Positions 2,150-46,744 of a stretch of DNA of 47,462 nt are shown here, in pieces; within the stretch, counting starts at the first letter, position 1; every line of letters starts with the position of its first letter. Location of the stretch: UHGV virus genome UHGV-0128156; one strand, written 5' to 3'. The position numbers were made by a program, and so were the translations under genes. Origin of the DNA: a virus. The notes beneath the pieces are model-generated. The model saw only the letters and a list, made by a program, of their open reading frames with translations. It did no database searches and was not told where the DNA came from.

Positions 2150-2437
2150 TTATTTACAGTCCTTATTAGTAAATCCGGTCGCCAGCCAGTGCCCTACGGG
2201 ACGAACTGTCTGGCCAGGTGCAACACGCACCTGCATGCGACCAAAGCGGTCATACCTGACCGCATTGATTTTTAGCTGGTACTGCCCGTTTACCGGATAG
2301 GTGTTGATTTTGTATGTCACAGTGCATTCAGTTGGCTTGTAACGCTGGTCTGCACAACCACTAACCAGGATGCTAATACCGCCCACCAACAAAACGCAGG
2401 ACACCGTTTTGATCAAAAACTTTAAGCCCTGATTCAT
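2150..2437 (-). CDS. Small lipoprotein encoded immediately downstream of, and overlapping, the 3' end of J (possible Cor/Lom-position superinfection-exclusion or outer-membrane protein)
   Basis: MNQGLKFLIKTVSCVLLVGGISILVSGC gives a signal peptide with lipobox LVSGC. Its start lies 64 nt inside the J coding region in another frame. Confidence 0.5.
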   Translation of the reverse strand: MNQGLKFLIKTVSCVLLVGGISILVSGCADQRYKPTECTVTYKINTYPVNGQYQLKINAVRYDRFGRMQVRVAPGQTVRPVGHWLATGFTNKDCK

Positions 2438-5400: not shown

Positions 5401-8400
5401 ACCGAAATCTCGAATACCTGTCCCGCTTTTACCGGCCACGGTGGCGTATTGAGCTGGTGATCGCGTGAGGCCAGTCGCGCTACATAGCGACGCGGAGCGC
5501 CTGCCGGGATGTCAGCATCATACGGAATACCATCATCGTCGTTGCTGTCTACCGTATCCCGACGGGTAAAACCCATCGATGGATATGCGGGGTCAAATGT
5601 CGGGTTCAGGATGTAGTCGCCACCCGCTGCCGTCTGCGAATTCAGAGCAACATTAATCCCGGTGATCGCCGTTCCCTGCGATTCAATTTTACCCTCAGCA
5701 CTGGTGACGCGCGTATCAAGCTTGCTCACGGCATCGGCGGTGGCCGCTTTGGCCAGCCCTTCCTCAACCGTCGCTACGCGTCCTTTCAGGCTGGTTATGG
5801 CCTGGTTCGCCGCCGTAATATCCTTGCCCTGCTTGGTAACGGTGGCGCTGAGGTCCTGTACTGTCGAGCTATCGGCCTTCTGGTCGATTCGTTTCCCCAG
5901 GTCTGTGTTAACGGTATCGATTCTGCCGGTCAGTTGCGTTAGCGATTTACCCTGACTGGTAATCGTATCGCCCTGCTGGGAGACGGTTGTCTGCAGGTTG
6001 GTCAACGCTGTCGCGTTCGCATTAATATTTTCCTGGTCGGTAATATCAATGACGAACATGTCATCGATATAGAGCTCCCCGGAGGCAAGGCGAGCCATAA
6101 CGCTCATCTGCATAACGCCCGATTTATTCGCCTTCCACTTAGCAAATACTTCTGTCCAGACGGAACCAGTCTGCAGTTTTGTTGGGTCAATACGGGCTTC
6201 CTGAATCTGCGAATTGTCATTAAACGCAAACCGGAATTTGTTGCTTTGTTCGGAGCCAGTAACGATAGCCGTCCCGTCTTTCGCTCGTGCGAATCCTCCA
6301 AACCTATAAGTCCGACCAGCAACGACCGTCACGGTCGTGGTATTGCGTACCTCATCCAGCTGGTCGTTATGAGCTTTGAAGTAAAGAATTTTTTTACCTG
6401 AGCTGGGTTGTTGGGCCGTATCCACACGAACATCGGTCGTTGAACCTGTAACCCAATTATCAAAGCCACGCTCAAACCCACCATTCGGGATTAGGTTTCC
6501 GGCCAGCTTGTTGTCTGCGTCATGCTTCATCGCAGAAAGATCTGCTGACAGGCTCGTCGTCGCAGCAACGTTCGCAGCAATATCCTTACCCTGCTGCGTG
6601 ACGGTGGACTTCAGGCTATCCAGCGCGGCGGTGGTGGCTTTCTTCGCCACCTCGGCATTGGTGGTATCAATACACCCACTCAGGCTGGTGATCGCGCTGG
6701 CGTTGGTGGCAATGTCGTCACCGTTCTTCGTGACCTGCGACTGCAGGTCCTGCACCGCTGATGCATCGGCTTTACCAGCGATACCGTTTGAGGCGGTCAG
6801 CATGAAGCCCTGCAGGTAAACACGAGCGGTCGACGGCGTCCATCCTCCGCAGGCCATGCGCAGGTAACACCACCTCCCTTTGAAGTCATTCGGGATCGTG
6901 AACGTCAGCGTGCGGGTCTGGTAGCCGGTGGTGATGCCTGCAAACCAGTTGTTGTCCTGAGTAAGCCATGCGGTCGGGTTCCCCCAATTCTCAATCAGGC
7001 CCATCGTAAAATTCTGGGTCCCGATACTGATCGTCGCGTCGTCCGTCTTGAATCCGAAGGTGAGCGTCAGTACCTGACCGGCTTCGACCGGGATTTTTGT
7101 TCCGTTGGCGATTCGCATCGCCGGCTCGGTCGTGGTGAGACCTTTCATCACCGCGTCATAGACCGGAGCACCCGCGCCGGTGCCGGACAGCTGCCAGTTA
7201 TCCGCTTTATTAATCAGGTCGCCATTCAGCAGGAGGTTGCCGGTCGTAATCTGTGACTTGAGCGCCGTCGTCTGCTGCGCCGTGGTGGCCAGCGTATTCT
7301 CGGCAGTCGTGACGCGGGTCGTCAGTTGCTGGACAGCATCCGAGCTGGCGCTGTCTGCCGGTGCCTGGCTCCAGTCGCTCACAATATTGCCGGATTCAAA
7401 CATCGGAGAGCTGATCCACGCTTCGCGCGCTGCAGCTGCGCCGTCGAGTCTGGCCACAACGAGATACGCCGTCCCGGACAAGCCAGGTTTGCGTTTGTAT
7501 TTAACCCAATAGCGGCTCCAGGACGTGGAGAGCGTCACGGTCACATCGCCGTTATACCCGGCTGGACGCTCCACAATAACGCCCTGGCTGGTTTCAGCGC
7601 GGATAGTGGCATCCGGCGTATTCAGGAAACAACGAACCGGCGTCTTGTCCGTCTTCGCTTTCGCATAGAACGACAGAACATACTCGGTACCGTCAACCGG
7701 CGCGGCCAGCGTGTAGTCGAGGACGGCAAAATCAGTCGCTCCGGCGGCACGCGTCAGGATGCGAACCGCGTTACCCCGGTAACGTTCGGTTGTAGATGGC
7801 GATTTGCCGGTCAGTTCCCCGGAGTTGGGTATCAGGTTTACGCCGCCGATTCGGATGTTATCGACCTTCGATTCCACCCCGGCAATCTGGCTGGCGTTGG
7901 CCTGAACTTTGCCGTCGATAGTCTGGACGTCACCCTCGATTTTCTGGATGGCCAGCGTATGGCCAGCAATGACGCCGTTCGCTGAAACAAGGTCCGCTGC
8001 AACCTGATCCGTTTTCGAGGCAGTCGACTGCAGGTCGCTCGCCAGCGTATCCATGCGCTGGGTCGCCGCTGCAGTGGATTTATCATAATCGACGCGCAAC
8101 GTATCAACGCGGGAGCCGATGGCCTTCTCCGCCGTCACGCGGATTTTCCGCTCTTCGAAAAGCAGGCCAGAAACCAGTTTATTCGGGTCTGTCCCTTCCT
8201 CGTTGCCGCGCAGCTGCACCGCCAGTTGGTTACGCTCCATCGCCTCAGCTGAGTCGGCAGCAGTCATCGCCGTTTTCAGGTCCTGAATCTGCGCCTGCGA
8301 TGCGCCAGGAGTCGGGCGCCCAACGGCCAGCCAGTCAACGGCATAATAGTTATCGGCGTCAGCCGCTCCACCCTGTGAGAAGTCGAGACGCAGGCGGCGG

Positions 8401-11400
8401 ATGGTGCCGGAGGCCTGCCACGGGATATCCGGGATCGCGATAGTGCTGATGCCGGTGGCCGGGTCAAAATCCGGTGCTGGCAGCACCAGGCGGCGTCCAT
8501 CGGTCCAGCCGGTTTCATCAGCGCCAATCCAGTACAGCCGACCGCCCCAGGCCGGGTTGCCGACTTTCTTGATGCGCAGGCGGAGGTACTTATAGGCGCT
8601 GCCGTCAATCAGCGTGCCAGCGCCCGACGGGCTGCGCATGGTCGAAATGGAATCCGCAGGAAGGACCCACCCGTCGTCGTTCGTCGGGAGCGGTTTCGTG
8701 CCGCCGTCGTCAGAACTCCACCCCTCGTTGTCCTTGTCGAAATACCAGATTTTGAGACTGTCGAACTGCTCCCCGGTACCGGCTGAAATCGACGCCATCT
8801 GCTGCGCCAGGCTGTCAAAGCCATCCTGCATGGTGACGTTCGTCGTCTCAATCGCCGCTTCAACTTCGCGTTTGGCACTCAGCAGGTTATCGGCGGCCTG
8901 CTTCGCCAGGGCGGCATCGTCCGTTTCGGCTTTCGCCACCGCCGCCGCAGTATCGCTGGCCGCTTTCTGCGCCGTGGCGGCATCACCTGCAGCGCGGTCT
9001 TTCACTTCCTGCGCCAGCTTGTTGGTCGTGTCGTTAGTTTTGGCGATGTTGGTGGCCAGGTCCTTGCCCTGCTGCGTGACAATGGCCCCCTGTGCGGCGA
9101 CATCCTTCGCCGCCTGGTCAGCGGTTCCCTGGGCGGCGTCCGCAGCCTGTTGCGCGGCGTCGGCAGCAGCGCTGTTGTCCTGGATGCCTTTGTTCAGTTC
9201 CTCGTATGTATCCGAGCCTTTAAGCGCGTCGTCGAGCTGCTGGTAATAATCAGAAACGTTATCGCTGGACATTCCATGCACCCAGCTGGTCCACGGCGAG
9301 GCATTGCCCAGGCGGTCAACCAGGCGCGCGCGGTACCAGAACTGCGTGGCAATCTGCAGGCCCATCTGTTGATACTGTTTGCCCGGATACGCTAAATCGG
9401 TCAGCGGCATCGCACCGTTTCCACTCTGGTCCGGGCTGTACTGCAGTTCAGTTCGCTGGCTATCCTCTGCGCCTGCAGGGAATTCCCAGCGAATTTCGAT
9501 ACCTGCGGTCAGTGAAACGGTCGTCAGCGCCAGCGGCGGCAGCGGCTCGCCGACTTTCCCGGTCAGGGTCTTCTCTTCCGAGTACGCCCAGCCACTGGAA
9601 ATTTCCGCCGCGTTGATCGCACGGACTCGCACCAGATAGCGACCGGCATAAATGCCGCTGACCTCAAATGACGTGGTCGAGCTGCGCGGCACGTTAATCC
9701 AGTTGCCGTCATTGCGGCGCCACTGAGCCTCATAGGCGATAGCGTTTTGTACCGCGTCCCAATTGACCTGCAGGGTTTCGACGCTGATCCCCTGATTCAC
9801 CACGGAGAAGGACGTCAGGAGGATGCCATCTGGCGGAGCCTGGTTGCCAGGCGGGATAACACTAATCGGGCGCTGGTCGATGATTGCGCCGGTATCGATA
9901 CGAGCAAATTTATCCGGGTCGTGAGCCACGCCGGTAATGGTAAGCGTGCCGTTATTGTTGTCCTTTACACCGATAACGCGATACTGCTGCGGCACCAGGT
10001 CGGTATATTCGACGATCCAGACGCACTCCGCCTCTGGTGTCTCACTGTATCCCGTCGTGACCGTTACCTGCCGGCGGCCATTCACCGACAGGATGGCCCT
10101 AGCCTGCGAGATACCCGACGGCAGATTCAGATGCAGGCGGTCGCCTTCTTTTGCATCGATATCACGGTCGAGCGTGATGACGCGTCCATTCACCGCGCTG
10201 ATACGACCACCATTAACTCGCCCGGCCAGCCGTTCATCGCCCAGGCCAATGATGTAACCAGGCTGTGGGATCCTGCCGTCCAGACCAACATCAATTTCGA
10301 CCATACGGTCCTTGTTGTTGGTCAGAATGGCCCATAACCCTTTACGATGGGCTTCACTCTGCCGCGTACATCCAATGGCCGTGACTTCCACCTGATTAAA
10401 GCTGTAACGGGAAACCAGTTCCGGGATAAATGCGGGCTCCATCGCATCGGCATAGGCGTTATCCGGGTCAGACCATGAAACTAGCGCATTGGTGTACCGC
10501 GCCTTACTGGTGCTGCTGGAATAGCGCGGGCTACCGATAATATTTGCGCGCGTATAGTTGAAATCGACATCACGCGGCATATCGGCCTGCACGATAATCT
10601 GCTCACCACTCCAGCAGGTCATACCCCGGAAAATAGCAGCGAAATCGCGTAGTACGGTGTAGGCGTCGTTGCGTTCCTGGACATAAACGTTACAGGTATG
10701 GCGAGGCTCCATACCATCACCGCCCCTGCCATCGGGTATCAGCTGATCGCAATACTGCGCAATCGGGTAAAGCGCCCATTTGGAGATATTCGCGCTGGTC
10801 AGACGATCGCCAAGACCGAAACGATCAGAGACAATAATGTCGTAATAAATCCATGCCGGGTTATCAGTCCATGCCCATTTGAAGCCCCCTGTCCATGTGC
10901 CGGTATATTCGCGCGTTTCCGGGTTGTAGTTATCCGGGACACGGATAACACGCCCGCGCGGCTCGCAGGAGATTTGCGGGATAGAACCATTGAACTGGCT
11001 GGAGTCGAATTCGATGTACAGCAGAGCGGTATGTGGGTAACGCAGTTTCGCGTCAATAACCTCGGTGTAGCTCTGTAGCGTCATGACATCGCCGATTTTG
11101 ACGCTGTTCGCGTCCGGCGATACCTTGCGAAGACGCAGCGTCCAGGTGCTGCCTGCCTGCGGTAAATCTATACGGTGGCTACGTTCATACCCGGAAGTCG
11201 TTTTGCCGGAGGCTGCGGTTTCCAGTACGGTCTGCCAGGCTTCGCCATCCGTCTGTAAATCGATGGCGTATTTAACGGTATTCCCCACCACATCGCCGTC
11301 GTCTTCCTGTTTCATCAGGGATGGCCATTTCAGGCGGACGCGAACGGCAGAAAGCTGGGTATTGGTGAATGTGTGGGTCCAGGCGGTCTCGCTGGAAACT

Positions 11401-11699
11401 TCCGTCCCTACGCTAATTTCATTTTCAGTGCCGGGAATACCCTGAATATAATTTTGTGCCTGCGTACCCGGCCTGAATTCCCACGCTACGCCGCTAAAGC
11501 TTTGCGAACCGTCGGCATTCTCCAGAGGGGTGCCATCGAGATAAATATCTTTCCCGGTTAAACCACCCGCAAATTCACCCTCACCTAATGCGATAAGAAT
11601 TTTGGCTTTTGCTACAGACTGTAAATCGTCCGGCTGTTCCGTGGGCGTACGCTGTTTAGAGCTGCCACCTTTACGCCCTTTAATGATGTTATTTGCCAT
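2373..11699 (-). CDS. J: Giant host-specificity / central tail fibre protein (lambda J-like N-terminal region with a very long repeat-rich C-terminal extension), 3108 aa
   Basis: The N-terminal ~1000 aa follow the lambda gpJ pattern and the gene sits directly downstream of gpI. The C-terminal two thirds contain at least 8 diverged modules built from the motif V(T/S)QQGKDI...ITSL plus CBM-like NL(I/L)PNGGFE(R)(G/D)F(D/T)NW segments. Confidence 0.85.
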   Translation of the reverse strand: MANNIIKGRKGGSSKQRTPTEQPDDLQSVAKAKILIALGEGEFAGGLTGKDIYLDGTPLENADGSQSFSGVAWEFRPGTQAQNYIQGIPGTENEISVGTEVSSETAWTHTFTNTQLSAVRVRLKWPSLMKQEDDGDVVGNTVKYAIDLQTDGEAWQTVLETAASGKTTSGYERSHRIDLPQAGSTWTLRLRKVSPDANSVKIGDVMTLQSYTEVIDAKLRYPHTALLYIEFDSSQFNGSIPQISCEPRGRVIRVPDNYNPETREYTGTWTGGFKWAWTDNPAWIYYDIIVSDRFGLGDRLTSANISKWALYPIAQYCDQLIPDGRGGDGMEPRHTCNVYVQERNDAYTVLRDFAAIFRGMTCWSGEQIIVQADMPRDVDFNYTRANIIGSPRYSSSTSKARYTNALVSWSDPDNAYADAMEPAFIPELVSRYSFNQVEVTAIGCTRQSEAHRKGLWAILTNNKDRMVEIDVGLDGRIPQPGYIIGLGDERLAGRVNGGRISAVNGRVITLDRDIDAKEGDRLHLNLPSGISQARAILSVNGRRQVTVTTGYSETPEAECVWIVEYTDLVPQQYRVIGVKDNNNGTLTITGVAHDPDKFARIDTGAIIDQRPISVIPPGNQAPPDGILLTSFSVVNQGISVETLQVNWDAVQNAIAYEAQWRRNDGNWINVPRSSTTSFEVSGIYAGRYLVRVRAINAAEISSGWAYSEEKTLTGKVGEPLPPLALTTVSLTAGIEIRWEFPAGAEDSQRTELQYSPDQSGNGAMPLTDLAYPGKQYQQMGLQIATQFWYRARLVDRLGNASPWTSWVHGMSSDNVSDYYQQLDDALKGSDTYEELNKGIQDNSAAADAAQQAADAAQGTADQAAKDVAAQGAIVTQQGKDLATNIAKTNDTTNKLAQEVKDRAAGDAATAQKAASDTAAAVAKAETDDAALAKQAADNLLSAKREVEAAIETTNVTMQDGFDSLAQQMASISAGTGEQFDSLKIWYFDKDNEGWSSDDGGTKPLPTNDDGWVLPADSISTMRSPSGAGTLIDGSAYKYLRLRIKKVGNPAWGGRLYWIGADETGWTDGRRLVLPAPDFDPATGISTIAIPDIPWQASGTIRRLRLDFSQGGAADADNYYAVDWLAVGRPTPGASQAQIQDLKTAMTAADSAEAMERNQLAVQLRGNEEGTDPNKLVSGLLFEERKIRVTAEKAIGSRVDTLRVDYDKSTAAATQRMDTLASDLQSTASKTDQVAADLVSANGVIAGHTLAIQKIEGDVQTIDGKVQANASQIAGVESKVDNIRIGGVNLIPNSGELTGKSPSTTERYRGNAVRILTRAAGATDFAVLDYTLAAPVDGTEYVLSFYAKAKTDKTPVRCFLNTPDATIRAETSQGVIVERPAGYNGDVTVTLSTSWSRYWVKYKRKPGLSGTAYLVVARLDGAAAAREAWISSPMFESGNIVSDWSQAPADSASSDAVQQLTTRVTTAENTLATTAQQTTALKSQITTGNLLLNGDLINKADNWQLSGTGAGAPVYDAVMKGLTTTEPAMRIANGTKIPVEAGQVLTLTFGFKTDDATISIGTQNFTMGLIENWGNPTAWLTQDNNWFAGITTGYQTRTLTFTIPNDFKGRWCYLRMACGGWTPSTARVYLQGFMLTASNGIAGKADASAVQDLQSQVTKNGDDIATNASAITSLSGCIDTTNAEVAKKATTAALDSLKSTVTQQGKDIAANVAATTSLSADLSAMKHDADNKLAGNLIPNGGFERGFDNWVTGSTTDVRVDTAQQPSSGKKILYFKAHNDQLDEVRNTTTVTVVAGRTYRFGGFARAKDGTAIVTGSEQSNKFRFAFNDNSQIQEARIDPTKLQTGSVWTEVFAKWKANKSGVMQMSVMARLASGELYIDDMFVIDITDQENINANATALTNLQTTVSQQGDTITSQGKSLTQLTGRIDTVNTDLGKRIDQKADSSTVQDLSATVTKQGKDITAANQAITSLKGRVATVEEGLAKAATADAVSKLDTRVTSAEGKIESQGTAITGINVALNSQTAAGGDYILNPTFDPAYPSMGFTRRDTVDSNDDDGIPYDADIPAGAPRRYVARLASRDHQLNTPPWPVKAGQVFEISVWVAAKAGSNAAFNMYIGSATGPNTGAVAYAALPGSVAPTQTWTEKKYRWTVPANFPRGYMRPFLQVNQNAPFGSVWYATDFHCREITAAQGAQTAADAAAGAVTQLDAKVTQQGNTITSQGQAITAITGRVSNLESGQSANSSAIQSLTQRTTAAEGKIETNSQAITSVTGAVNAMLNRGENLANDFNFMSGSALWGVQGNTRNKVEFGDFGDGKPGVQMTQLDSTLYTGLFANQKAPLPHNTPRRYQVIVKAKGVSGAMNFMVRRFNYLGNVAGTYENRQFSATDTWATYAAEFSAPSSATVDGSVFALYCYPNASVIQIDYIAIYDITDAVAIDANTSAVTQLQQTVTQQGKDIAANASATTAVSASLNAAMADVDNKITGNLILNGGFERDFTNWTAPAPTTIMAASSPHSGKKIVKYVAATSATLLSSDTVITVVKGRTYKFGAWLRAKAGSTMQPNTQPNNKVRFAYLDSSVIVEARFDPATMLTGSVWQEYSNTWTATKDGTMSVSINAFLNAGEIYIDDVYVIDITDRVDLDATAGAVSNLQSTVTQQGKDIASNASAITSVNASIGALQSQGLNPWCDGSFESYTANQQLGSSSLARVSTDVYRNGQKSLKITRNNGESGNSDKMIGNWLAVRGGGKYRFSLWAYMASDMSTPNGWSVSVGLFARGENGGANQWPEAVRISETNISRGKWVLLTGVATVGADRSIAQMWISTRGANGGAGYSLHLDDISIVDVTDAQEAQDTATGAANAVTQLTATVTQQGKDITAQAGQITSLGSRVDDAESRITKQDETIASNGLAMATGFNQMRSMIGDNSAAITTTNKTVADLEKSTTEQITTLTSQVGDMSATVQQTASTVADLNGKLGAQWGVKVNTSSGGNNYVAGIQLGIDGSGQSQFLVQADTFGVYVPNGDQKNMVFGIDGNGAYFQQAMARNLTINFGQISDSLQSTNYQPGSTGWRLPKNGAFEMNSNVPGQGRIQLDESGLKVFDQNGVLRFVGGRY
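3084..9095. repeat. Dispersed intragenic nucleotide repeat family inside J (about 25-45 bp core aatatccttgccctgctgcgtgac...ctgcag)
   Basis: Copies near 3084, 3724, 4332, 5048, 5817, 5950, 6579, 6711 and 9058. They encode the repeated peptide TQQGKDI on the minus strand. The artefactual plus-strand ORFs carrying ISLPCCVTV are their mirror image. Confidence 0.8.
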
Positions 11700-30863: not shown

Positions 30864-31402
30864 AGGTTTACTCTCTCCTTCACCCACCCGAAGAGAAATT
30901 CTTCATTGGCTTCCCGCGCTTCCGCCAGTTCGAGATACCGTGCGCCCTGACTGCAGTTCAACCCTTTCAGTATCACCGTGCCCCCGGCACTACCCCGTAA
31001 GGCGAGGTAACTGCGCAGCGCGGCGATCGTGATGTTCCCGATGACGCCATCTGGTTTCAGGTCGGGATACAGTTTGCCGCGTTGGTTCAGTGCCGTCAGC
31101 CAACGCTGCAGGAAAGTTGTGGAAACACGCGGCCCCATGTTGACGCCGGTATCGCATAACTCTTCTGCGATTGATGGTGACAGTTCGGCGATCTTGTCAA
31201 ATTTGGGCTCCAACCAATACTGCTGCATATAGATTTCTTTCGCAGTATCCCTAGGGAGCTCTTTCATATCGCCTTTGTAACCGTATGCACGGGCTGTGTT
31301 CTGGGTGATACCCCAACGAGTAGGACCACCTTTATCATTCGGGTTATTAACGTAACCCCCTTCTTTGCCGAGGATGGCTTCAATGATCTGGTCTGCTGTC
31401 AT
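30860..31402 (-). CDS. Endolysin, glycoside hydrolase family 108 N-terminal domain plus PG_binding_3-type C-terminal domain
   Basis: EGGYVNNPNDKGGPTRWGIT signature of GH108. ATGA overlap with holin. Confidence 0.8.
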   Translation of the reverse strand: MTADQIIEAILGKEGGYVNNPNDKGGPTRWGITQNTARAYGYKGDMKELPRDTAKEIYMQQYWLEPKFDKIAELSPSIAEELCDTGVNMGPRVSTTFLQRWLTALNQRGKLYPDLKPDGVIGNITIAALRSYLALRGSAGGTVILKGLNCSQGARYLELAEAREANEEFLFGWVKERVNL

Positions 31403-31710
31403 TGTGCTTTCACTCCGGTAATGCGTTCCCAAAAGTACGTAAGCGCCACAGAGCCCATCGCACCGCTAATGCCTGAAGTTACCAAGATCATGTAAAGGCT
31501 AAGTCCGCTTTCCACGCTAACCAACCCGCCGATAAGCCCTGTAAACCCGGATACCGCAATTTGAGCGAGAGCGTTAATCCAGCTCCAGGTGGCTTTGTTT
31601 TGCTTAACGTCAATCAGGTATCGGACAAGGCCGCCCCAGCATGACAGAGCAAGGACAATCAGCCATGAAACTCCGGCAATGCTTTCTTTATCTTGCATAC
31701 GTTTAGCCAT
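31399..31710 (-). CDS. Holin
   Basis: 103 aa with 2-3 TM helices and a charged C-terminus. First gene of the lysis cassette, with a GGAGGTGAT RBS. Confidence 0.75.
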   Translation of the reverse strand: MAKRMQDKESIAGVSWLIVLALSCWGGLVRYLIDVKQNKATWSWINALAQIAVSGFTGLIGGLVSVESGLSLYMILVTSGISGAMGSVALTYFWERITGVKAQ

Positions 31711-32236
31711 ATCACCTCCGGGTTAACGGGGTGCTGTGTGAGTTTGAAAGGATCAGGCCCATCGGGCTGATTTAACAACGAGCCGTATCGATGATGAATC
31801 CCGTGAGCCTGAAATGAAAAAGGCCACGCAAATGCGCAGCCTGTAATTGTCGTGGGTAATATTTTTAATTGTCGCCAGAGGATCACTGACGCTGGAAATC
31901 ACCACAAGCGGTTGAAATCTGATCCACCAGATAGCAAAAAGCGCCGCAAGGTAGCGAGGTCATCAAGTGATTGTCTGGTGGCCGGTGCAGATCTCCGGCT
32001 TGAACCTATTCTGGTACTCCCGCGATTTACTAAAGCGACCTGGAGCGCATTAGCGGTCTTCGCTGATTTTCATCGCGTCGGCTTCACGCATCAGCCTGCG
32101 CATTCACCACAACGATAATGGCGCTCAGTGCATTTAAGCCAGGTCCCATAAGGGAAAGTGCCATTATCTGTTGCGCGCTCCGTTTCGTGGAGCAACGTCG
32201 TTTTGCGAAGGCGGAATTGACATGGAGTATTCAGGT

Positions 32237-32267
32237 AAAAAATGCCAGCCTCTGGAGGGGCTGGCAA
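32237..32267 (-). terminator. Late-leader terminator 3
   Basis: Minus strand reads GCCAGCCCCTCCAGAGGCTGGC followed by ATTTTTTACC. Confidence 0.5.
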
Positions 32268-32336
32268 AGGGATGTGACTTCGATTTTGTATTGGGCGTGA
32301 TACACGGGTATCGGTATCACAACTACATTATAGACA

Positions 32337-32366
32337 ATAAAAAAGCCCTGTATCTCTACAGGGCCC
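32337..32366 (-). terminator. Late-leader terminator 2
   Basis: Minus strand reads GGGCCCTGTAGAGATACAGGGC followed by TTTTTTATTGTC. Confidence 0.65.
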
Positions 32367-32639
32367 TGAAATCAGGACAGAAAGAATCGAACACCTAAGG
32401 TGTGTGGTGCCGGGTGCTTCCCGGAGAATCGGCCAGCGAACCGATCCGTGTGCTTACGATAAAAGATAGGAACCGCTGTACACTCCACCGCGTTGGGGAT
32501 TCACCACGCAGGAAAAGTAACAAAAATCTTCACCCACCACACTCAAGATTTTGTCTAAATCTGGAAAATACAACTCGACGATATGACAGGGGTACTGATG
32601 CTCAGCATCTCGCGAATACCCCTGTCGTATCGCCGGAAA

Positions 32640-32664
32640 GCAAAAACCCCGCACTGGCGGGGCT
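32640..32664 (-). terminator. Late-leader terminator 1 (tR'-like)
   Basis: Minus strand reads GCCCCGCCAGTGCGGGG followed by TTTTTGCTTTCC, about 60-85 nt downstream of the predicted late promoter. Confidence 0.65.
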
Positions 32665-32724
32665 CTCGTTATAATCAAATTGTCGCTTTTTGTCGCTGCC
32701 GAGTGGCGCAGCTCTGCCAAGCAT

Positions 32725-32760
32725 GAATGGATTATCTGATTTTTTGGCCCATTTTCAACA
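32725..32760 (-). promoter_or_regulatory. Putative late promoter (pR'-like) downstream of the Q-position gene
   Basis: Minus strand reads TTGAAA, then 16 nt, then GATAAT. A short transcript would end at terminator 1, which is the lambda 6S-RNA arrangement. Confidence 0.5.
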
Positions 32761-32786
32761 TCAAAAGGGATTTATAGCACTTTTTG

Positions 32787-33392
32787 TTAATCAGCCTGAA
32801 TTCCCTTTCGTACCGACAGAAATGTTTTTGCTCTGAATATTTCCAGGCACCATCGCACGCGCTTGCGGGCTTCACCATCTGTTAGCCACGGAGCCACCAG
32901 CTGTAATTCCCGGGTTATGTCAGAGATTTTTTTACGTGTGGTGTAATAACTAACTCCTACCAGATAAACCGGATCCGCCGTTTCAAATGCGCCGAGAACA
33001 CAGCGCTCTACGAATTCGGCATCATCATCATGAATAGCGGAATCTATCAGGCCGATGACAGGCTGAGGCCATAAAATCGCATGTGCTCGGTTTAAGGCTT
33101 GCTGGCCTCGATATCCCTCCTCCCTCGCCTGTTCTATCGCGGCAGTAAATCGTTCCAGCGCTTTATCTGACCAGCGGTCCCCTTTCAAACCTCGCCAGCA
33201 GGAGTGGCCTGTGGGCTTTCGGGGAGCTGTTCCCCCACGCATGCTCTCTCCCCATATTGTAAGTAGCGATTTAATCCAGGCAGACTGAATGCCATTCAGG
33301 GGCGTAAACCGGCCTAACCAGCTTTTGCGAGGCGCGGCGGCCACTGTTTCTAATCCTGCGCGCTGCAGCCGGCGTTGACGTGGTGTCATCAT
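32787..33392 (-). CDS. Putative late-gene regulator at the Q position (antiterminator candidate; no recognisable Q zinc finger)
   Basis: About 200 aa, last gene before the late promoter and terminators. The assignment is positional only. Confidence 0.35.
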   Translation of the reverse strand: MMTPRQRRLQRAGLETVAAAPRKSWLGRFTPLNGIQSAWIKSLLTIWGESMRGGTAPRKPTGHSCWRGLKGDRWSDKALERFTAAIEQAREEGYRGQQALNRAHAILWPQPVIGLIDSAIHDDDAEFVERCVLGAFETADPVYLVGVSYYTTRKKISDITRELQLVAPWLTDGEARKRVRWCLEIFRAKTFLSVRKGIQAD

Positions 33393-33402
33393 GCTCTTCT
33401 CC

Positions 33403-34434
33403 TTACGCCAGAACGCCGAGCGCATAGGCCCGGTCCAGCAATTTAATAATTAATTCCGGCTGACTGCCGTACTCACTCTCGAAAGCAACTGGATCGTGAT
33501 GAAGCGTCCGGTGATGCTTACGGCAAAGAGGGATCGTAAAAATATCGTGTGCCTTGGTACCAACGCCGCCCTGCCCCCATCCGATAAGGTGATGCGCATC
33601 GTCGGCAGACTGACCGCAGCACATACATGGCTGAGTTTTTACCCAGGAAATAAAACCATCTGACACCCAGCGGATCCGCTTAGGTCTGGTGAATAAAGTG
33701 GCTGGTGCCACGGGATCAACAACCACTGGCACCTCTGGTTTTACCGGGGCTGGTGGTCCAGGATGCCTGGCAACCTTAGCAACAAGCGGGGAAAGAATGC
33801 TGGTGGCCGGCACCGATGGGACGATTTCGCTTTCTTTGTAGACTGACTGGAAAACCTCTTCTTTAAGCCGGAGGGAACGGCGCGCCATCTCTTCTGTGAT
33901 TTCGTCCCCTATCCCAACGCTGACAGCCCACCAGCACAATTCAGCAAGTGACAGGGAGCGTTCAGGGTCAAATCCCAGTGCGATACGGGCAGCATCGATT
34001 ATCAGATCTGCGTTATTGATACCTACCAGCCTATCAAGGGTTTGATCGGTCTGGTACTTCAGCTCGTTATCACAATGCCAGCATGCGACGATTGCCCCAG
34101 TTGAATGCCGGAACGTTACCAGCTCTGAATGGTGATAATCAGAATGTGGCCACTGGCAATGCTTAACCCTCTTAAGCAACCAGGATTCGAGACTATTCAC
34201 ACCACCAGCAGCCCTCACTACCCGCTCTTTCATAAAGAATGGTCGAATATCAGGATCATCTCGTAAAGGTTGCCCGACGTCAGGAATGCGCCCGCTTGGT
34301 AGAGCCTTCATTTTTTCTGGCAGAGTCTCCACCAGCACGCGCCCACCGCTGAATAAAGGCATCAACTCTTTCCCGGGTTTAAGCAACACAATTCCCAGGT
34401 GCCGGGCAACATCAACATTTAGTAATGCGCGCAT
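33403..34434 (-). CDS. DUF968-like phage protein with C-terminal HNH-type motif
   Basis: C-terminus CMCCGQSADDAHHLIGWGQGG...CRKHHRTLHHD. Size and position resemble the YdfU/DUF968 proteins of lambdoid prophages. Confidence 0.5.
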   Translation of the reverse strand: MRALLNVDVARHLGIVLLKPGKELMPLFSGGRVLVETLPEKMKALPSGRIPDVGQPLRDDPDIRPFFMKERVVRAAGGVNSLESWLLKRVKHCQWPHSDYHHSELVTFRHSTGAIVACWHCDNELKYQTDQTLDRLVGINNADLIIDAARIALGFDPERSLSLAELCWWAVSVGIGDEITEEMARRSLRLKEEVFQSVYKESEIVPSVPATSILSPLVAKVARHPGPPAPVKPEVPVVVDPVAPATLFTRPKRIRWVSDGFISWVKTQPCMCCGQSADDAHHLIGWGQGGVGTKAHDIFTIPLCRKHHRTLHHDPVAFESEYGSQPELIIKLLDRAYALGVLA

Positions 34435-34637
34435 CAGTCCCTCCACATTTTTTGTGTGTAGGTTCTGTTAATGCGCGGTGGCTTGCTGGATTCCGGCAAC
34501 AGCACACGGAGTTCCCATGAGATAAAGTCGCTCGACAGGCTTTTCTCAACCGGACAATTCTTTTTCCGGTAGCGTTCCGCCAGTTCCAGAGCTTGAGACT
34601 CTGAAAGTTGTTCATGGAGAAACCAGCTTTTCTTCAT
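34434..34637 (-). CDS. Hypothetical 67-aa protein
   Basis: Translationally coupled on both sides (ATGA upstream, TGATG downstream). Confidence 0.45.
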   Translation of the reverse strand: MKKSWFLHEQLSESQALELAERYRKKNCPVEKSLSSDFISWELRVLLPESSKPPRINRTYTQKMWRD

Positions 34638-35026
34638 GGGCGGGCCTCGTACACTCGCAGGAACTCCAGCGCCCGATCACGCGCCCCAGGTTCGTCAGCG
34701 ATCATTTCCTGCAGCAGCTGCACGGCAAGTAATGGTTCCTTTCTTCCGACGACAGAAATCCCACGGGAAACACCGCGAGATAGTTTTATGAAGTTTTTTT
34801 TATGTAACGCACGAAGGTGCAAAGCGACAGCATTCGGTGAGCTAACGCCGAGAAGCCCGGCCAGTTCCTGAACGGTCGGCGGGTAGCCATGCTGATTGAT
34901 ATATGCCACCAGCAGATCAAAAACTTCCTGCTGTCGTGGTGTCAGGTTGTGGAATGAAGAAAGACCGGCACCATCAACATGATCGCCAGCCTGTTCCGCA
35001 TCAGATATTAATTTTGTTTGCGCCAT
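34634..35026 (-). CDS. LexA N-terminal DNA-binding-domain homologue lacking the S24 autocleavage domain
   Basis: [65 protein letters not shown] aligns with the LexA winged-helix DNA-binding domain ([67 protein letters not shown]). Only about 45 further residues and no Ser/Lys peptidase motifs. GGAGAG RBS. Confidence 0.7.
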   Translation of the reverse strand: [130 protein letters not shown]

Positions 35027-35066
35027 GGTTTCTCTCCGTGACGCAGCAGGTATAGGTTGTTCAGGC

Positions 35067-35357
35067 CTATGACGGGAGTGTAACAGAGCCCGGAGGAATC
35101 TGGTAACCCCCTCCGGTCTTTGCTCTTTCAATCATCTGCGAAAACAGCGAGAGAGTCCCCACGATCTCATCGGGCTGCAGAGGCATAAACGAAACAGTAT
35201 CACCGCGACGGTACATTAAAGCGCGCTCACATACGGGAAAAGAGGTGAGACGGGCAACAATTAAACCGTCATCGCATCTGATTACTACATAGCCGGTGTT
35301 CGGCATTTGTTGTTTTTTAGCCACAGCAAAATCCTCAAAATAAACCAGGTCAGCCAC
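35067..35357 (-). CDS. Hypothetical protein immediately downstream of dinI (candidate antirepressor; GTG start, alternative TTG at 35372)
   Basis: Second gene of the LexA-box operon. No recognisable domain. Confidence 0.4.
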   Translation of the reverse strand: MADLVYFEDFAVAKKQQMPNTGYVVIRCDDGLIVARLTSFPVCERALMYRRGDTVSFMPLQPDEIVGTLSLFSQMIERAKTGGGYQIPPGSVTLPS

Positions 35358-35368
35358 TGGACCTCTAC

Positions 35369-35602
35369 TCAATAGAACCAGTCGTCAGCACTTTCCCAGG
35401 TATCCTGAAGGATTTGCTCCACCCGCTTTTTGTCCCCATCCATCCCACCAAGCACACTCAGACCATCAGTACCGGTTCGGCGAATGATAAAACTGCGGTT
35501 GTTAAAGTTTTGGTCATGTCGCCGCAGCAACTCTTTCTCTAATGCCGGGACAGCGCCATCTGGTAGCTTTTTGCGACGATCAATTGTGATTTCCACTTTC
35601 AT
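35369..35602 (-). CDS. dinI: DinI-family protein (DNA-damage-inducible protein I homologue)
   Basis: C-terminus ...KKRVEQILQDTWESADDWFY matches DinI ...KQRISEILQETWESADDWF. AAGGGG RBS. Confidence 0.8.
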   Translation of the reverse strand: MKVEITIDRRKKLPDGAVPALEKELLRRHDQNFNNRSFIIRRTGTDGLSVLGGMDGDKKRVEQILQDTWESADDWFY

Positions 35603-35621
35603 AATTAGCCCCTTATGCAAA

Positions 35622-35664
35622 TACTGTATAAATAAACAGTATACCTGAAGAATGAAATGGTCAA
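35622..35664 (-). promoter_or_regulatory. SOS promoter with a consensus LexA box overlapping the -10
   Basis: TACTGTATAAATAAACAGTA (CTGT-N8-ACAG) at 35622-35641. Minus-strand -10 TATACT at 35638-35643 and -35 TTGACC at 35659-35664. Confidence 0.75.
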
Positions 35665-35723
35665 GACATTAAAGGCACTTCTTGCCAACTCCATGCCTAT
35701 GTTTAGATTGATCTTTTGCTGAA

Positions 35724-35754
35724 AACCAAAAAACCCGCCGAAGCGGGTTTTTAC
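35724..35754. terminator. Bidirectional intrinsic terminator insulating the SOS operon from the upstream early-right operon
   Basis: AAAAAACCCGCCGAAGCGGGTTTTT, with A-runs and T-runs on both sides. Confidence 0.7.
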
Positions 35755-35938
35755 ATGCAACCATACCATTTTGCTCTGTCATTTTTTGCAAAATTGAACA
35801 GTAGAAGGTTCTGTAGCTTTAGAGTCAGAGCGTTTAGATGAGACGACTACCCATGGCTATGTTGCATTGATGCCATACTACGTAGTGAGCTAACCCGTAA
35901 GGCATTAACTAACCACTTATTATGGCTACATCGATTAC

Positions 35939-36382
35939 TTATTTCAGAAATTTGTTATACACGAAGAACTCTCTATCTCGCACAAATCCATTACGCTCAT
36001 ACAACGCCTGTGCAGGGATATTATCTGTAGCGGTACTAAGCATGATAAAAGCCGAATCGCTCTCCTTCGCCAGTTGCTCAGCACGGGATATTAGTTTCTG
36101 TGCAACACCATGCTTCCTAGCTGACTCATCAACGAAAAGGTCATAAAGCAACCAGATACGTTTCATCTCGAGAGAGCAAAACAAAGGATAGAGTTGCGCA
36201 AAGCCGACCGCTTTCCCATCAACATCGGCGTAAAAAATCACGGACTCATTAAGCTGAAGGCGCTTGAGAATAAAATCTCTGGCCTGGGACGCGTTTTCCT
36301 CGACCTTGTAGAAACGACGGTAACCGAGATACAAAGGAAGGATAGTTTCCACATCATGTGGTTGAGCTTGATAAATTTTCAT
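35939..36382 (-). CDS. GNAT family N-acetyltransferase (AT-rich moron)
   Basis: Acetyl-CoA binding motif region ...VDESARKHGVAQKLISRAEQLAKESDSAFIMLST...ALYERNGF. Low GC. Confidence 0.8.
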   Translation of the reverse strand: MKIYQAQPHDVETILPLYLGYRRFYKVEENASQARDFILKRLQLNESVIFYADVDGKAVGFAQLYPLFCSLEMKRIWLLYDLFVDESARKHGVAQKLISRAEQLAKESDSAFIMLSTATDNIPAQALYERNGFVRDREFFVYNKFLK

Positions 36383-39365: not shown

Positions 39366-39926
39366 TTAGAAAAACTGCGGCGCTACGGCGCTGATACTCG
39401 CCAGTAGTGGTCCCGCCGCATCTGCAGGGAGCATGTTAAAAAGTGCAATTGCAGCTTCCCGTATTTCACGCTCTAGCTTCTGCAGAGGTGCGCCAAGTAA
39501 CTTGGCCTGGTGCGCTTCGCTGCATTCTTTGATTGCATTGGCCACCAGCTCGGTTTCAGTTAAGCCACGTTTTAGGCCATGTTTGCGCGCGATCTCTATC
39601 GGCATTGCATCAGCGATCGCCGCCGAAAGCTGGATGACATAACTGGTGTACTTCTCTGAACCGCCCTCGTTTTTAAGGTAGCGATACAGATTTTGTTTAT
39701 TGACGCTGATACCGCGCCCGTTTTGTTTCTCCCACTGTTCGGCCACCAGCTGCGCGACGTGGTCTTGCGCACGCCCAGGTAATGAGGACTCCCATTCCTG
39801 AACGGCGGCCAAAATGGCTCGGCATTTCTTGCCGTCACGCCGACGGGGCAAATACTGATTTTCCGTTTTCAGTTGCATACTCATCACCGGAGTATGATTT
39901 TCAAAAGAGATGGTTTGCATGGTCAC
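39366..39926 (-). CDS. Hypothetical early protein at the cII position (possible CII/CP76-like regulator)
   Basis: ATGA-coupled to cro. 186 aa. The assignment is positional. Confidence 0.3.
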   Translation of the reverse strand: MTMQTISFENHTPVMSMQLKTENQYLPRRRDGKKCRAILAAVQEWESSLPGRAQDHVAQLVAEQWEKQNGRGISVNKQNLYRYLKNEGGSEKYTSYVIQLSAAIADAMPIEIARKHGLKRGLTETELVANAIKECSEAHQAKLLGAPLQKLEREIREAAIALFNMLPADAAGPLLASISAVAPQFF

Positions 39927-40138
39927 TCCTTAGGTATTCCATCCGTTGGATTCGGATATAGATCAGGACGTAATTCATGAGGCGTAACGCCCGTTGCATT
40001 AAAAACCTGTAAAACTCGCGATGAAGGCACAATACCTTTTGTTTTCCACTGACTTACTGCCATGCCGCTTACTCCAAGCGTTGATGCTAATTTATTGGCT
40101 GAGCCAGCTACTCGAATTGCGTTATCAAGGGCTGTCAT
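39923..40138 (-). CDS. cro: Cro-like HTH transcriptional regulator
   Basis: GSANKLASTLGVSGMAVSQW...GVTPHELRPDLYP matches Cro/YdaS-type HTH proteins. Divergent from the repressor gene, with a GAGGAG RBS. Confidence 0.75.
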   Translation of the reverse strand: MTALDNAIRVAGSANKLASTLGVSGMAVSQWKTKGIVPSSRVLQVFNATGVTPHELRPDLYPNPTDGIPKE

Positions 40139-40159
40139 ATCTATCTCCTCGTTAAGTTA

Positions 40160-40236
40160 GGCATAATAAAGCATAGGTTTATATTCAATGCAAATTTTTA
40201 ATTTATTGTGGCTATAAACTAAACCTTTACAATGGG
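40160..40236. promoter_or_regulatory. Immunity-region operator/promoter block (oR with pR toward cro and a pRM-like leaderless promoter toward the repressor)
   Basis: 17-bp operator-like sites ATAAAGCATAGGTTTAT (40166-40182) and ATAAACTAAACCTTTAC (40214-40230). pR has -35 TTGCAT and -10 TTTATT on the minus strand. The plus strand has TTGTGG, 17 nt, then TACAAT ending 6 nt before the cI-like ATG. Confidence 0.55.
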
Positions 40237-40239
40237 CTT

Positions 40240-40629
40240 ATGAAAAACACTGAAGAACTCAACAACCAACTGATTGCTCGTTTGGAAGAAATTACTCAAA
40301 GAGGGATCAGCAAGGCGGATATGGCTCGCATTGCTGGAGTTACACCTCAAGCGGTGAATGGGTGGTTTAAGAAAGGAGTAATCAGTAAAAAGTCCGCAAT
40401 TGCCCTCGCGGAAGCTGCCAATGTGTCTGTAACTTGGTTGCTTGGAGAGAAGGTATCTGAAGATTCAGGCCTCAAGCCAAATGAGAGCAAAATGTTACGC
40501 CTGTTTAGGCAGTTACCTGAGGCAGAACAAGAGAGAATGATCGATACTTTTGAAGTCCGCCTAAAAGAAATCGATGATTATGTTGAGAAATATCTTCGTG
40601 GTCGATTTAAGGCTAGAGACACTAACTAA
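40240..40629 (+). CDS. CI-like prophage repressor, HTH only, without an S24 autocleavage domain
   Basis: HTH ISKADMARIAGVTPQAVNGWFKKGVISKKSAIALAEAANV. 129 aa with no Ser-Lys peptidase domain. Divergent from cro. Confidence 0.7.
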   Translation: MKNTEELNNQLIARLEEITQRGISKADMARIAGVTPQAVNGWFKKGVISKKSAIALAEAANVSVTWLLGEKVSEDSGLKPNESKMLRLFRQLPEAEQERMIDTFEVRLKEIDDYVEKYLRGRFKARDTN

Positions 40630-40649: not shown

Positions 40650-40678
40650 GAAACCGGCAAATGCCGGTTTTTTTTTGC
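40650..40678 (+). terminator. Strong intrinsic terminator after the repressor gene
   Basis: AACCGGCAAATGCCGGTT followed by T9. Confidence 0.8.
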
Positions 40679-45523: not shown

Positions 45524-45733
45524 TTATGCTGCTTTTTTCTCAGAGCAGTTGCAAAGTGGAATAGGAAAAGGTTTTCCTTTCTTTGCGTGACGCACTACAC
45601 CATCTACACATACGGTATAGCGAAAAATAATCTCGCAAGTATTACCACATTTGCGACAGGTTCCAGTAGCCATAAGCTTCCTTCCCTGCATACCTGTAAA
45701 TTCATACAGATTGCACTTTGTTGGGAGAACCAC
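45524..45733 (-). CDS. Small Cys-rich zinc-ribbon protein
   Basis: CRKCGNTC...C.....CNC motifs. 55-69 aa depending on start. Confidence 0.4.
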   Translation of the reverse strand: MVLPTKCNLYEFTGMQGRKLMATGTCRKCGNTCEIIFRYTVCVDGVVRHAKKGKPFPIPLCNCSEKKAA

Positions 45734-45845: not shown

Positions 45846-46286
45846 TTATTCTTCCGTTGCAATCGAAGGAATGTGCCAAGGCAAATCGATACTTTGCATA
45901 GGTGTATTCTGCATCGTTGACTCAAGAGCCAACTTCATGGATATCGAATAAAAATTTTCAAAAAACCAAGCATTTTCTTTACAAAATTCATCTGTAATAG
46001 GCTGTTTATCTTCAACATCAAAGTAAACTAAAATTTTAGAGTTTACCTCGAAGGCGAGACCGTCCTCATTTGGATTTTCAGGATCTTCAAGAGCCTGTTC
46101 GTCAAAACCTTTGATTGATGATTCGACAATGATCTGAATATTCCCCTTCTCTTCAGACTCATTATAATCGTATCCAAACTGGCATTTATCCACGGATAGC
46201 TTAAATCGACCGCCTTCGCTGTCCTTATGCTGCACAAACTGTGAAGATGAAATCTCGAATCCGCCGTATTTAATTTTCTCTAGCAT
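45846..46286 (-). CDS. Hypothetical acidic protein, translationally coupled downstream of hicB
   Basis: Start MLEKIKYGG overlaps the hicB stop. AT-rich. No recognisable domain. Confidence 0.5.
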   Translation of the reverse strand: MLEKIKYGGFEISSSQFVQHKDSEGGRFKLSVDKCQFGYDYNESEEKGNIQIIVESSIKGFDEQALEDPENPNEDGLAFEVNSKILVYFDVEDKQPITDEFCKENAWFFENFYSISMKLALESTMQNTPMQSIDLPWHIPSIATEE

Positions 46287-46744
46287 CAGTGATGAGTCCC
46301 TTTGCTGATGGCACCAACCCATTTAGTCTCACGAAATGAACTGGCATTGTATTCATGAGCGAATACTTCAGTTTTCTCGCGCTTTTCAATGTGGAAGTGG
46401 TATTCCGTTTTACCGACGACTTTCTCTTCGATTGCTGACTTAACATAATCATTGAGACTTTTACCCTCAGCACACGCTGACAGATACGCTTTCTTATGCA
46501 AATCAGGTCCGATACGAACGTTAAACGTACCACTCATAGGCTTCTCTGGGTCTTTATTGAGAGCCATACAGGTTTCAAGATAATCATCGACAGCTTCTTC
46601 GAAGGCAGACTGTAAACCATCAAGTGTTTCCGCCTCGTACGTAACAAGATCATTTACGCATTGAATCTTCCCATGGAGAACTTTGTCCTCTAAAGAAAAT
46701 TCAACACTTCCAAAATAACCTTTAAATTTCAGCATATTACTCAT
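46286..46744 (-). CDS. hicB: HicB-family antitoxin (HicB fold plus RHH-like C-terminal region, with a C-terminal extension)
   Basis: KFKGYFGSVEFSLEDKVLHGKI...GTFNVRI...GKSLNDYVKSAIEEKV follows the HicB pattern. Downstream of hicA and overlapping it. Confidence 0.7.
   Translation of the reverse strand: MSNMLKFKGYFGSVEFSLEDKVLHGKIQCVNDLVTYEAETLDGLQSAFEEAVDDYLETCMALNKDPEKPMSGTFNVRIGPDLHKKAYLSACAEGKSLNDYVKSAIEEKVVGKTEYHFHIEKREKTEVFAHEYNASSFRETKWVGAISKGTHH

Follow-up and report, generated by a model that had tools for sequence, protein, structure and literature searches.

UHGV-0128156 is a virus genome of 47,462 nucleotides (the whole of this stretch is referred to here as the window), most of which is occupied by a lambda-like prophage transcribed chiefly from the minus strand. 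At the junction of its early and late regions lies an SOS module, in which a LexA box precedes a dinI homologue and, directly after it, a gene for a 96-residue protein. We put at about 0.8 the probability that this module is the induction switch of the prophage, of the type formed by the repressor GfoR and the antirepressor GfoA in Gifsy-1 and by their counterparts in Gifsy-3. In the Gifsy operon, a LexA box is followed by dinI, the antirepressor gene and irsA, and GfoR, once bound by GfoA, comes off the DNA uncleaved (Lemire, Figueroa-Bossi and Bossi, 2011; PMC3121763). The circuit is already known from that work, and the window provides a further copy of a known switch. The window adds modestly to this: a clade of antirepressors that is distinct and has no annotation, the small gene rather than dinI as the constant partner of the LexA box, a variant of the operon that begins with recA, and a truncated LexA as an optional operon member. 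The features of the module are as follows.

35729-35752, minus strand: strong intrinsic terminator (stem of 10 bp, then a T run), immediately ahead of the SOS promoter.
35659-35664, minus strand: -35 hexamer TTGACC, read from the sequence.
35636-35641 or 35638-35643, minus strand: -10 hexamer in two readings, TACTGT or TATACT, with a spacer from TTGACC of 17 nt or 15 nt, respectively.
35622-35641, no strand assigned: LexA (SOS) box TACTGTATAAATAAACAGTA, in agreement with the consensus at 18 of 20 positions and covering the -10 and the likely transcription start.
35369-35602, minus strand: dinI homologue, first gene, 77 residues, ATG at 35602 (Pfam DinI, 8.1e-22; phrog_189).
35067-35357, minus strand: candidate antirepressor of the GfoA family, second gene, 96 residues, GTG start, Shine-Dalgarno sequence AGAGG at 35362-35366.
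34634-35026, minus strand: LexA-domain-only protein, 130 residues (PF01726, 3.6e-21; no S24 domain).
34434-34637, minus strand: 67-residue protein (phrog_1212, 1.2e-23), a homologue of Gifsy-2 STM1021.1n.
33403-34446, minus strand: DUF968/HNH nuclease (PF06147, 7.3e-68; phrog_96).
32787-33425, minus strand: Q-like antiterminator (phrog_753, 4.3e-57), downstream and in the same orientation.

Several of these features had been named in an original prediction made from the sequence by itself, and they are borne out here: the dinI homologue, whose product is 60% identical to Gifsy-2 DinI; the 96-residue reading frame directly after it, for which an independent gene caller yields the same product; the protein that has the N-terminal domain of LexA and lacks S24; and, at 40240-40629, a repressor whose sole domain is a helix-turn-helix (HTH) of the HTH_3 type. 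The genes of the operon are tightly packed on the minus strand, without room for separate promoters. A Shine-Dalgarno sequence, AAGGGG, precedes dinI at 35609-35614, the ATG of the 67-residue gene overlaps the stop of the LexA-domain gene (ATGA), and the nuclease gene, which begins at GTG 34446 or ATG 34434, overlaps the end of the 67-residue gene.

Scored against the 20-nt LexA consensus TACTG(TA)5CAGTA, the box shows two mismatches and the runner-up CTG-N10-CAG site in the window shows seven (13/20 matched); TACTGTATAAATAAACAGTA is the sole match in the window at three mismatches or fewer, and 100 shuffles returned none. The earlier claim of a textbook LexA box overlapping the -10 holds as to its near-consensus sequence, its uniqueness and the overlap, which is found under either reading of the promoter. 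The claim needs correction as to place, the box being at 35622-35641, not at the start of the interval that had been quoted, and the operon on the minus strand. The promoter was read by hand and is backed by conservation instead of a promoter scan: the TTGAnn hexamer, the spacing and the box are identical in layout across 22 related loci, Gifsy-1 and Gifsy-2. LexA control of the Gifsy operons has been demonstrated through replacement of the box and the use of lexA(Ind-) strains (PMC3121763), and by homology to this tested system the operon of the window is probably under LexA control as well.

A weaker LexA-like box, ACCTGTAAATTCATACAGAT, is seen at 45692-45711, where CTGT-N8-ACAG is kept and 7 of 20 positions are mismatched. 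It stands some 20 nt upstream of an open reading frame for a Cys-rich product of 49 residues (45527-45674, minus strand), just past the integrase gene; a homologue 73% identical to this product occurs in Klebsiella phage ST13-OXA48phi12.4. In other phages, a LexA motif ahead of a hypothetical gene adjoining int has been described in a paper on a Serratia phage (PMC7556043).

Comparison of the 96-residue protein with GfoA was made with a rebuilt sequence, GfoA being missing from the LT2 records. The annealing part of primer pp866 (PMC3121763) matches 58 viral contigs, in which the encoded product is nearly invariant, 82 residues long and initiated at TTG or GTG, and the context of the rebuilt gene (LexA box, dinI, GfoA, irsA, phrog_1212 gene, ninG) is the published arrangement. 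The two proteins are 36% identical over 81 residues (BLASTP, E 2e-11), and a profile of 25 homologues of the window protein aligns with GfoA at an hhalign probability of 98.3% (E 1.5e-14). Profile searches, which had been proposed with the original prediction, drew a blank for the 96-residue protein in Pfam and NCBIfam, as did a sequence search of solved structures, and succeeded in PHROGs, where the protein matches phrog_1813 (1.4e-38) and phrog_340 (1.3e-5); GfoA matches the same two groups in the opposite order, and both are labelled “unknown function.” A search of 1.84 billion representative proteins returned only 45 clusters for the family, some of which fuse an N-terminal half like that of the window protein to a GfoA-like C-terminal half and so bridge the two clades. 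Because BLASTP, hhalign, the shared PHROGs and these bridging sequences agree, the 96-residue protein is assigned by its sequence to the GfoA family, as a member of a sister clade, and the antirepressor candidacy proposed for it has gained a homologue to point to. A core is conserved across 110 homologue clusters, every one of them named “hypothetical protein” or unnamed, and the gene is under clear purifying selection.

Kinship with GftA, the antirepressor taken from the Gifsy-2 record, was also considered and is rejected, as neither BLASTP nor profile comparison finds any similarity; it is therefore GfoA by itself that anchors the family assignment. E. coli Rem, which relieves repression by DicA (bioRxiv 10.1101/2023.04.14.536235), falls in phrog_340, the group of GfoA; compared directly with the 96-residue protein it is too distant to show similarity, and phrog_340 is the sole link. 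No solved structure appears to exist for any member of the GfoA family. In the AlphaFold2 (AF2) model of the 96-residue protein, a disordered N-terminus leads into six short strands and the chain finishes in a helix, with a predicted local distance difference test (pLDDT) value of 76, and a Foldseek search of this model against the PDB gave VapB-like chains at a best E-value of 1.0, which is not significant. The start codon is GTG in the 96-residue gene, TTG in GfoA and GTG in GftA; a weak start looks like a family habit and may guard against accidental induction.

The presumed target is encoded in the immunity region, 4.9 kb from the antirepressor candidate, so that the operon lies outside that region, as in Gifsy. 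The relevant features are these.

40240-40629, plus strand: prophage repressor of the GfoR/DicA family, 129 residues, HTH_3 only, no S24 domain.
40139-40239, no strand assigned: AT-rich intergenic region between the repressor and cro genes, with presumed operators and divergent promoters, a role assigned from its position.
39923-40138, minus strand: Cro/DicC-like (YdaS) regulator, divergent from the repressor (PF15943, 1.9e-13; P22_Cro, 1.5e-7).
39366-39926, minus strand: CII-like/YdaT protein of the early rightward operon (PF06254, 2.7e-7; phrog_163, 3.4e-39).

The repressor gene is followed by a terminator (40650-40671), and a search of 40139-40239 for operators gave a single 7-nt inverted repeat, AGGTTTA/TAAACCT. 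GfoR was rebuilt with the aid of primers le144 and le145, which have exact matches flanking a 131-residue open reading frame in locus L033. Over its full length, the repressor of the window shares 45% identity with GfoR (E 9e-41), against only 29% with GtgR and with DicA (E 2e-11 for the latter), and has weaker matches to the DicA, RstR and RacR models. By sequence homology, both partners of the tested GfoA/GfoR pair appear to have counterparts in this prophage.

The C-terminal half of the repressor carries the motif LFRQLPEAEQ...RLKEID...YLRGR. Repressors found beside genes of the GfoA family (in the window, in L002-L026 and in L031-L048) have several unrelated types of HTH and a common C-terminal module, with the shared motif LFxQLPxxEQ...RLxE(I/L)D...YLxxR. 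Because one C-terminal module is common to differing HTH halves, the conserved C-terminal half may be the surface on which the antirepressor docks or through which the repressor dimerises, and the pattern points to shuffling of domains, with immunity specificity on one side and a shared module for dimerisation or antirepressor docking on the other. In keeping with this, GfoA and GfhA are each able to inactivate two repressors of different immunity (PMC3121763).

The generality of the arrangement was assessed in 25 loci retrieved with the 96-residue family as bait, one genome per species, from Klebsiella, Kluyvera, Raoultella, Enterobacter, Citrobacter, Kosakonia, Leclercia, Atlantibacter, Pluralibacter, Serratia, and Pectobacterium. 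A LexA box is present upstream of the homologue in 24 of the 25 loci. Co-conservation with dinI, a check proposed with the original prediction, holds for most of them, dinI being directly upstream in 20/25, and fails elsewhere. Three loci (L006, L024, and L026) have no dinI, and their LexA box is 44-97 bp from the homologue itself. In three further loci (L091-L093, ~2540-4400), whose query protein P0154 is annotated as being from Phytobacter diazotrophicus, a box identical to that of the window drives a phage recA homologue (353-361 residues) that replaces dinI and is followed by the GfoA-family gene, truncated LexA, the 67-residue gene, RusA, DUF968, and Q. Since the box persists where dinI is absent or replaced by recA, it is the small gene that constantly accompanies the LexA box, and the operon varies in its first slot (dinI, recA or empty). 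Of the 23 loci with 5 kb or more of flanking sequence, 19 encode upstream a repressor belonging to the same family, with Cro and YdaT as its neighbours, and the 25 repressors extracted beside homologues are all of 112-144 residues, which leaves no room for an S24 domain.

Two irregularities were seen among these loci. L007 (Raoultella planticola; 8261-10632) alone among the related loci has no LexA box and no dinI upstream, and its truncated LexA gene is found about 1.9 kb past the end of the matched homologue; the copy may thus have been rearranged or interrupted. Hits are split by frameshifted genes in some loci, namely L010 and L015.

On these grounds the following sequence of events is proposed, in which binding and inactivation of the repressor by the 96-residue protein are assumed by analogy with the tested homologues. 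In the lysogen, the 129-residue repressor would shut off the early promoters; as an HTH protein without a protease domain, it would not be brought to cleave itself through RecA. Host LexA, bound to the box over the -10 of the promoter at ~35620-35665, would keep the operon silent. Upon DNA damage, LexA self-cleavage stimulated by RecA would allow the operon to be transcribed, and DinI, made first, would probably tune the activity of RecA. From its weak GTG start, the second gene would give a β-rich protein of ~80-96 residues with a C-terminal helix, which would bind the repressor, possibly by docking on its conserved C-terminal half, and strip it from its operators, thereby opening early transcription and lytic development.

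The 130-residue protein encoded by the third gene deserves separate consideration. It aligns to residues 4-87 or 4-92 of E. coli LexA, depending on the entry (E ~1e-15), with an identity close to 58% over the winged helix (hand count). It has no Peptidase_S24 match, ends at residue 130 and reaches 67 with TIGR00498, for which the cut-off is 111. As the S24 catalytic domain and the Ala-Gly cleavage site are missing, it is not, judging by its sequence, a LexA repressor proper. Its segment EPLLAVQ (residues 93-105, window 34720-34760) matches the EPLLAQQ found just after the LexA cleavage site, and in the MAFFT register Ala84-Gly85 is replaced by R-K, a tentative assignment since HMMER picks another register. 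The protein belongs to a family of ~107 clusters from Klebsiella, Raoultella, and Enterobacter, mostly named “LexA family protein” or “DNA-binding protein,” in which the tail is conserved (KEPxLAVQLL...EPGARERAIEFL), and its AF2 model predicts a winged helix and, after the wing, a tail of two helices. The recognition helix reads SPNAVALH in the window, SPNAAAEH or SVNAAADM elsewhere in the family and SPNAAEEH in LexA, so that the window protein bears the changes E44A and E45L. Glu45 of LexA presumably contacts the CTGT motif in the LexA-DNA structure, and binding of the 130-residue protein to canonical SOS boxes is uncertain.

Only 5 of the 25 related loci carry the gene for truncated LexA, and a 106-residue member of its family is encoded at 4001-4321 of L090, in a prophage with an S24-type CI repressor; there it is just upstream of RusA, DUF968, and Q, with no SOS box, dinI or GfoA-like gene nearby. 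Given this distribution, inside and outside SOS operons, truncated LexA is optional in the interval from the replication genes to Q and does not define the antirepressor circuit. The original prediction had counted it as part of a Gifsy-type operon, which does not hold, as irsA occupies that position in Gifsy. It is possible, if on balance doubtful, that this protein is the founding example in Gram-negative bacteria of a LexA derivative that is expressed under SOS, cannot be cleaved and regulates in its own right. It is conceivable that it re-occupies SOS boxes once host LexA has been lost, giving a shut-off and silencing the LexA-controlled antirepressors of rival prophages. It is also conceivable, because its recognition helix differs from that of LexA (E44A, E45L), that it binds a new site and times late or Q expression by analogy with gp6 of phage GIL01. 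If this were true, truncated LexA and the variable first slot would together make the module a tunable cassette for SOS timing, not a simple trigger.

A number of observations weigh against reading the module as an induction switch. The SOS promoter was missed by the generic sigma-70 scan, whose rules neither reading satisfies, and this is why the conserved layout is relied upon. Neither the window nor L087/L088, which represent the same prophage region, has an irsA-like (NinB/DUF1367) gene after the antirepressor, its position being taken by the LexA_DNA_bind gene; however, irsA is not functionally defining, as its deletion leaves Gifsy induction unaffected (Lemire et al., 2011; PMC3121763). 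Identity between the 96-residue protein and GfoA is only 36%, and the AF2 model, of moderate confidence, lends the mechanism no independent support. GfoA is inactive on GtgR in Salmonella, so membership of the family does not amount to a cognate pair (PMC3121763). Finally, co-variation of antirepressor and repressor (Mantel) gives r = 0.46 with the Salmonella clade and -0.04 without it; the signal is driven by the split between Salmonella and the rest and is therefore not evidence of pairing, and the association of the 96-residue protein with the repressor is a matter of co-occurrence, not of co-evolution.

This last result is also what could be expected if the operon were SOS-induced cargo only, made up of DinI and accessory repair modulators, with a 96-residue protein that no longer acts on the repressor; induction would then depend on an antirepressor supplied in trans by another prophage or on spontaneous flipping of the switch, as reported for DicA/DicC. 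Members of the antirepressor family can act in trans and against repressors other than their own, and some repressors are insensitive to them (PMC3121763); near-identical 96-residue proteins adjoin repressors of different HTH and C-terminal subtypes, and derepression of the dicB promoter of Qin is possible without Rem (bioRxiv 10.1101/2023.04.14.536235). Yet the 96-residue gene stays with the LexA box even in loci without dinI or with another gene in its place, shows clear purifying selection and co-occurs with the repressor family in 19/23 loci, and both partners are homologous to the tested GfoA/GfoR pair, so that we consider a cargo-only operon unlikely. Another proposal is that truncated LexA is the key SOS regulator, either as an activator of late or lytic promoters like gp6 or as a non-cleavable substitute for LexA by which SOS promoters are reset, with the 96-residue protein in a secondary role. 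The protein is encoded in the same SOS operon, is coupled translationally to the next gene and has relatives in a conserved family marked by its own C-terminal tail, and a truncated LexA homologue, gp6, which matches the profile of that family at 96.7%, is an activator in GIL01 (PMC6182141). But the LexA box and the 96-residue gene persist in the loci that are without truncated LexA, which together with its presence in only 5/25 loci and in L090, beside an S24-type repressor and without an SOS box, means that it cannot be the general trigger; nor did a search for palindromes in 31400-36000 give a convincing candidate operator for it. We regard this role as very improbable. Slightly less credible still is a defective prophage in which the module is a domesticated remnant running host-beneficial or toxic genes, as DicA and Rem do in Qin. 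The order of antirepressor, DUF968 and Q resembles that of this cryptic prophage and frameshifted genes occur in some related loci (L010, L015), whereas in the window the integrase, exonuclease, replication, Q, lysis, terminase, portal, protease, capsid, tape-measure and fibre genes are uninterrupted and every gene of the module is intact. A GfoR/GfoA-type induction switch hence remains the preferred reading of the module.

The prophage around this switch looks complete, as its recognised genes are uninterrupted. On one side of the module lie the genes for tail fibres, tape measure, capsid, protease, portal, terminase, lysis and the Q-like antiterminator, and on the other those for DnaT-like and P-like replication proteins, the CII/YdaT-like and Cro/YdaS-like regulators, the divergent repressor, an exonuclease and the integrase. 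The host is probably a bacterium of the Klebsiella oxytoca group, and the nearest named homologues of the module proteins are from K. oxytoca and its relatives. Among complete E. coli genomes, 5,426 in number, none has a close copy of the region. Klebsiella Kp4865-4 and ST846-OXA48phi9.1, the phage records that come nearest, are ~79% identical and are unannotated or labelled “hypothetical.” The terminator at 35729-35752 closes the transcript of a GNAT acetyltransferase gene (35939-36382, minus strand), apparently an accessory (“moron”) gene, which lies between the replication genes and the SOS promoter and is separated by it from the latter. A terminator scan found no strong terminator between the SOS promoter and Q, and read-through from that promoter into Q is conceivable. 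Beyond the integrase, a HicB-family antitoxin-like gene (46286-46744, minus strand) and a phrog_19522 gene (45846-46322, minus strand) may be cargo of the prophage end or flanking host DNA. In the tail region, a single open reading frame of 3108 residues (2373-11699, minus strand) is very large for a lambda-like host-specificity protein.

Recognition of this module extends the GfoR/GfoA switch to the sister clade phrog_1813 in Klebsiella, Enterobacter, Citrobacter, Kluyvera, Serratia, and Pectobacterium; in the literature, no study of a GfoA-type module in Klebsiella was found beyond remarks in Lemire et al. (2011). GfoA and Rem have been characterised experimentally, yet their family is without a Pfam or NCBIfam model. 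An annotation rule can be drawn from the conserved arrangement, namely a LexA box, an optional dinI or recA and then the small gene, in prophages whose repressor is short and DicA-like. Such a rule helps to predict which prophages of clinically important Enterobacterales respond to DNA-damaging antibiotics, as well as cross-induction among co-resident prophages.

Among known systems, the closest are GfoR/GfoA of Gifsy-1 and GfhR/GfhA of Gifsy-3 of Salmonella Typhimurium ATCC14028, to which both the antirepressor (36%) and the repressor (45%) are homologous. The window shares with them a short repressor without S24, a LexA box over the -10, dinI as first gene, an antirepressor with a non-ATG start as second gene, and an operon that is several kb away from the immunity region, in the interval from the replication genes to Q, and upstream of a phrog_1212 gene, a nuclease and Q. 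It differs from them in its third gene (truncated LexA vs. the NinB/DUF1367-like irsA), in its nuclease (DUF968 vs. NinG) and in its antirepressor, which is of the sister clade (phrog_1813 vs. phrog_340) and has a longer, poorly conserved N-terminus; moreover, its host is Klebsiella-like and its module is known from sequence alone. With GtgR/GftA of Gifsy-2 and FsoA of Fels-1 it shares the logic of the circuit and the position of the operon. Gifsy-2 DinI is 60% identical and GtgR is a distant homologue of the repressor (29%) with the LFxQLPEAE motif in common, but GftA belongs to phrog_4847 and has no detectable similarity to the 96-residue protein, and FsoA is controlled by a phage repressor and not by LexA. 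The Gifsy-type circuit postulated in the original prediction is accordingly supported as to the LexA box, the dinI-first order, the place outside the immunity region and the homologues of GfoA and GfoR, and not as to any relationship with GftA.

In E. coli Qin, DicA is a homologue of the repressor (29%), Rem shares phrog_340 with GfoA, and rem is just upstream of ydfU and Q, in parallel with the order DUF968 then Q of the window; from its size and position, we take ydfU to be the counterpart of DUF968. On the other hand, Rem has no direct similarity to the 96-residue protein and Qin is cryptic; the signal that induces rem was not found by the authors of that study (bioRxiv 10.1101/2023.04.14.536235). 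Tum of coliphage 186 and AntC of N15 are likewise LexA-repressed antirepressors that act against a non-cleavable repressor, and Tum is tied to a DinI-like sequence as the 96-residue gene is to dinI, with the difference that Tum is an antirepressor fused to a DinI-like half and that the order is reversed (PMC3121763). For the 130-residue protein only, a likeness is seen to gp6 of the Bacillus tectivirus GIL01, a truncated LexA homologue of 66 residues that activates the late promoter P3 (Fornelos et al., 2018; PMC6182141). Both are phage-encoded LexA winged helices without a catalytic domain, gp6 is expressed after SOS induction as the 130-residue protein would be from its place in the SOS operon, and gp6 matches the profile of the truncated-LexA family (hhalign 96.7%). 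The 130-residue protein is, unlike gp6, close to enterobacterial LexA over residues 4-87 and has an extra two-helix tail and a disordered N-terminus, so the two are clearly independent truncations, and gp6 is the closest functional precedent for the truncated LexA of the window.

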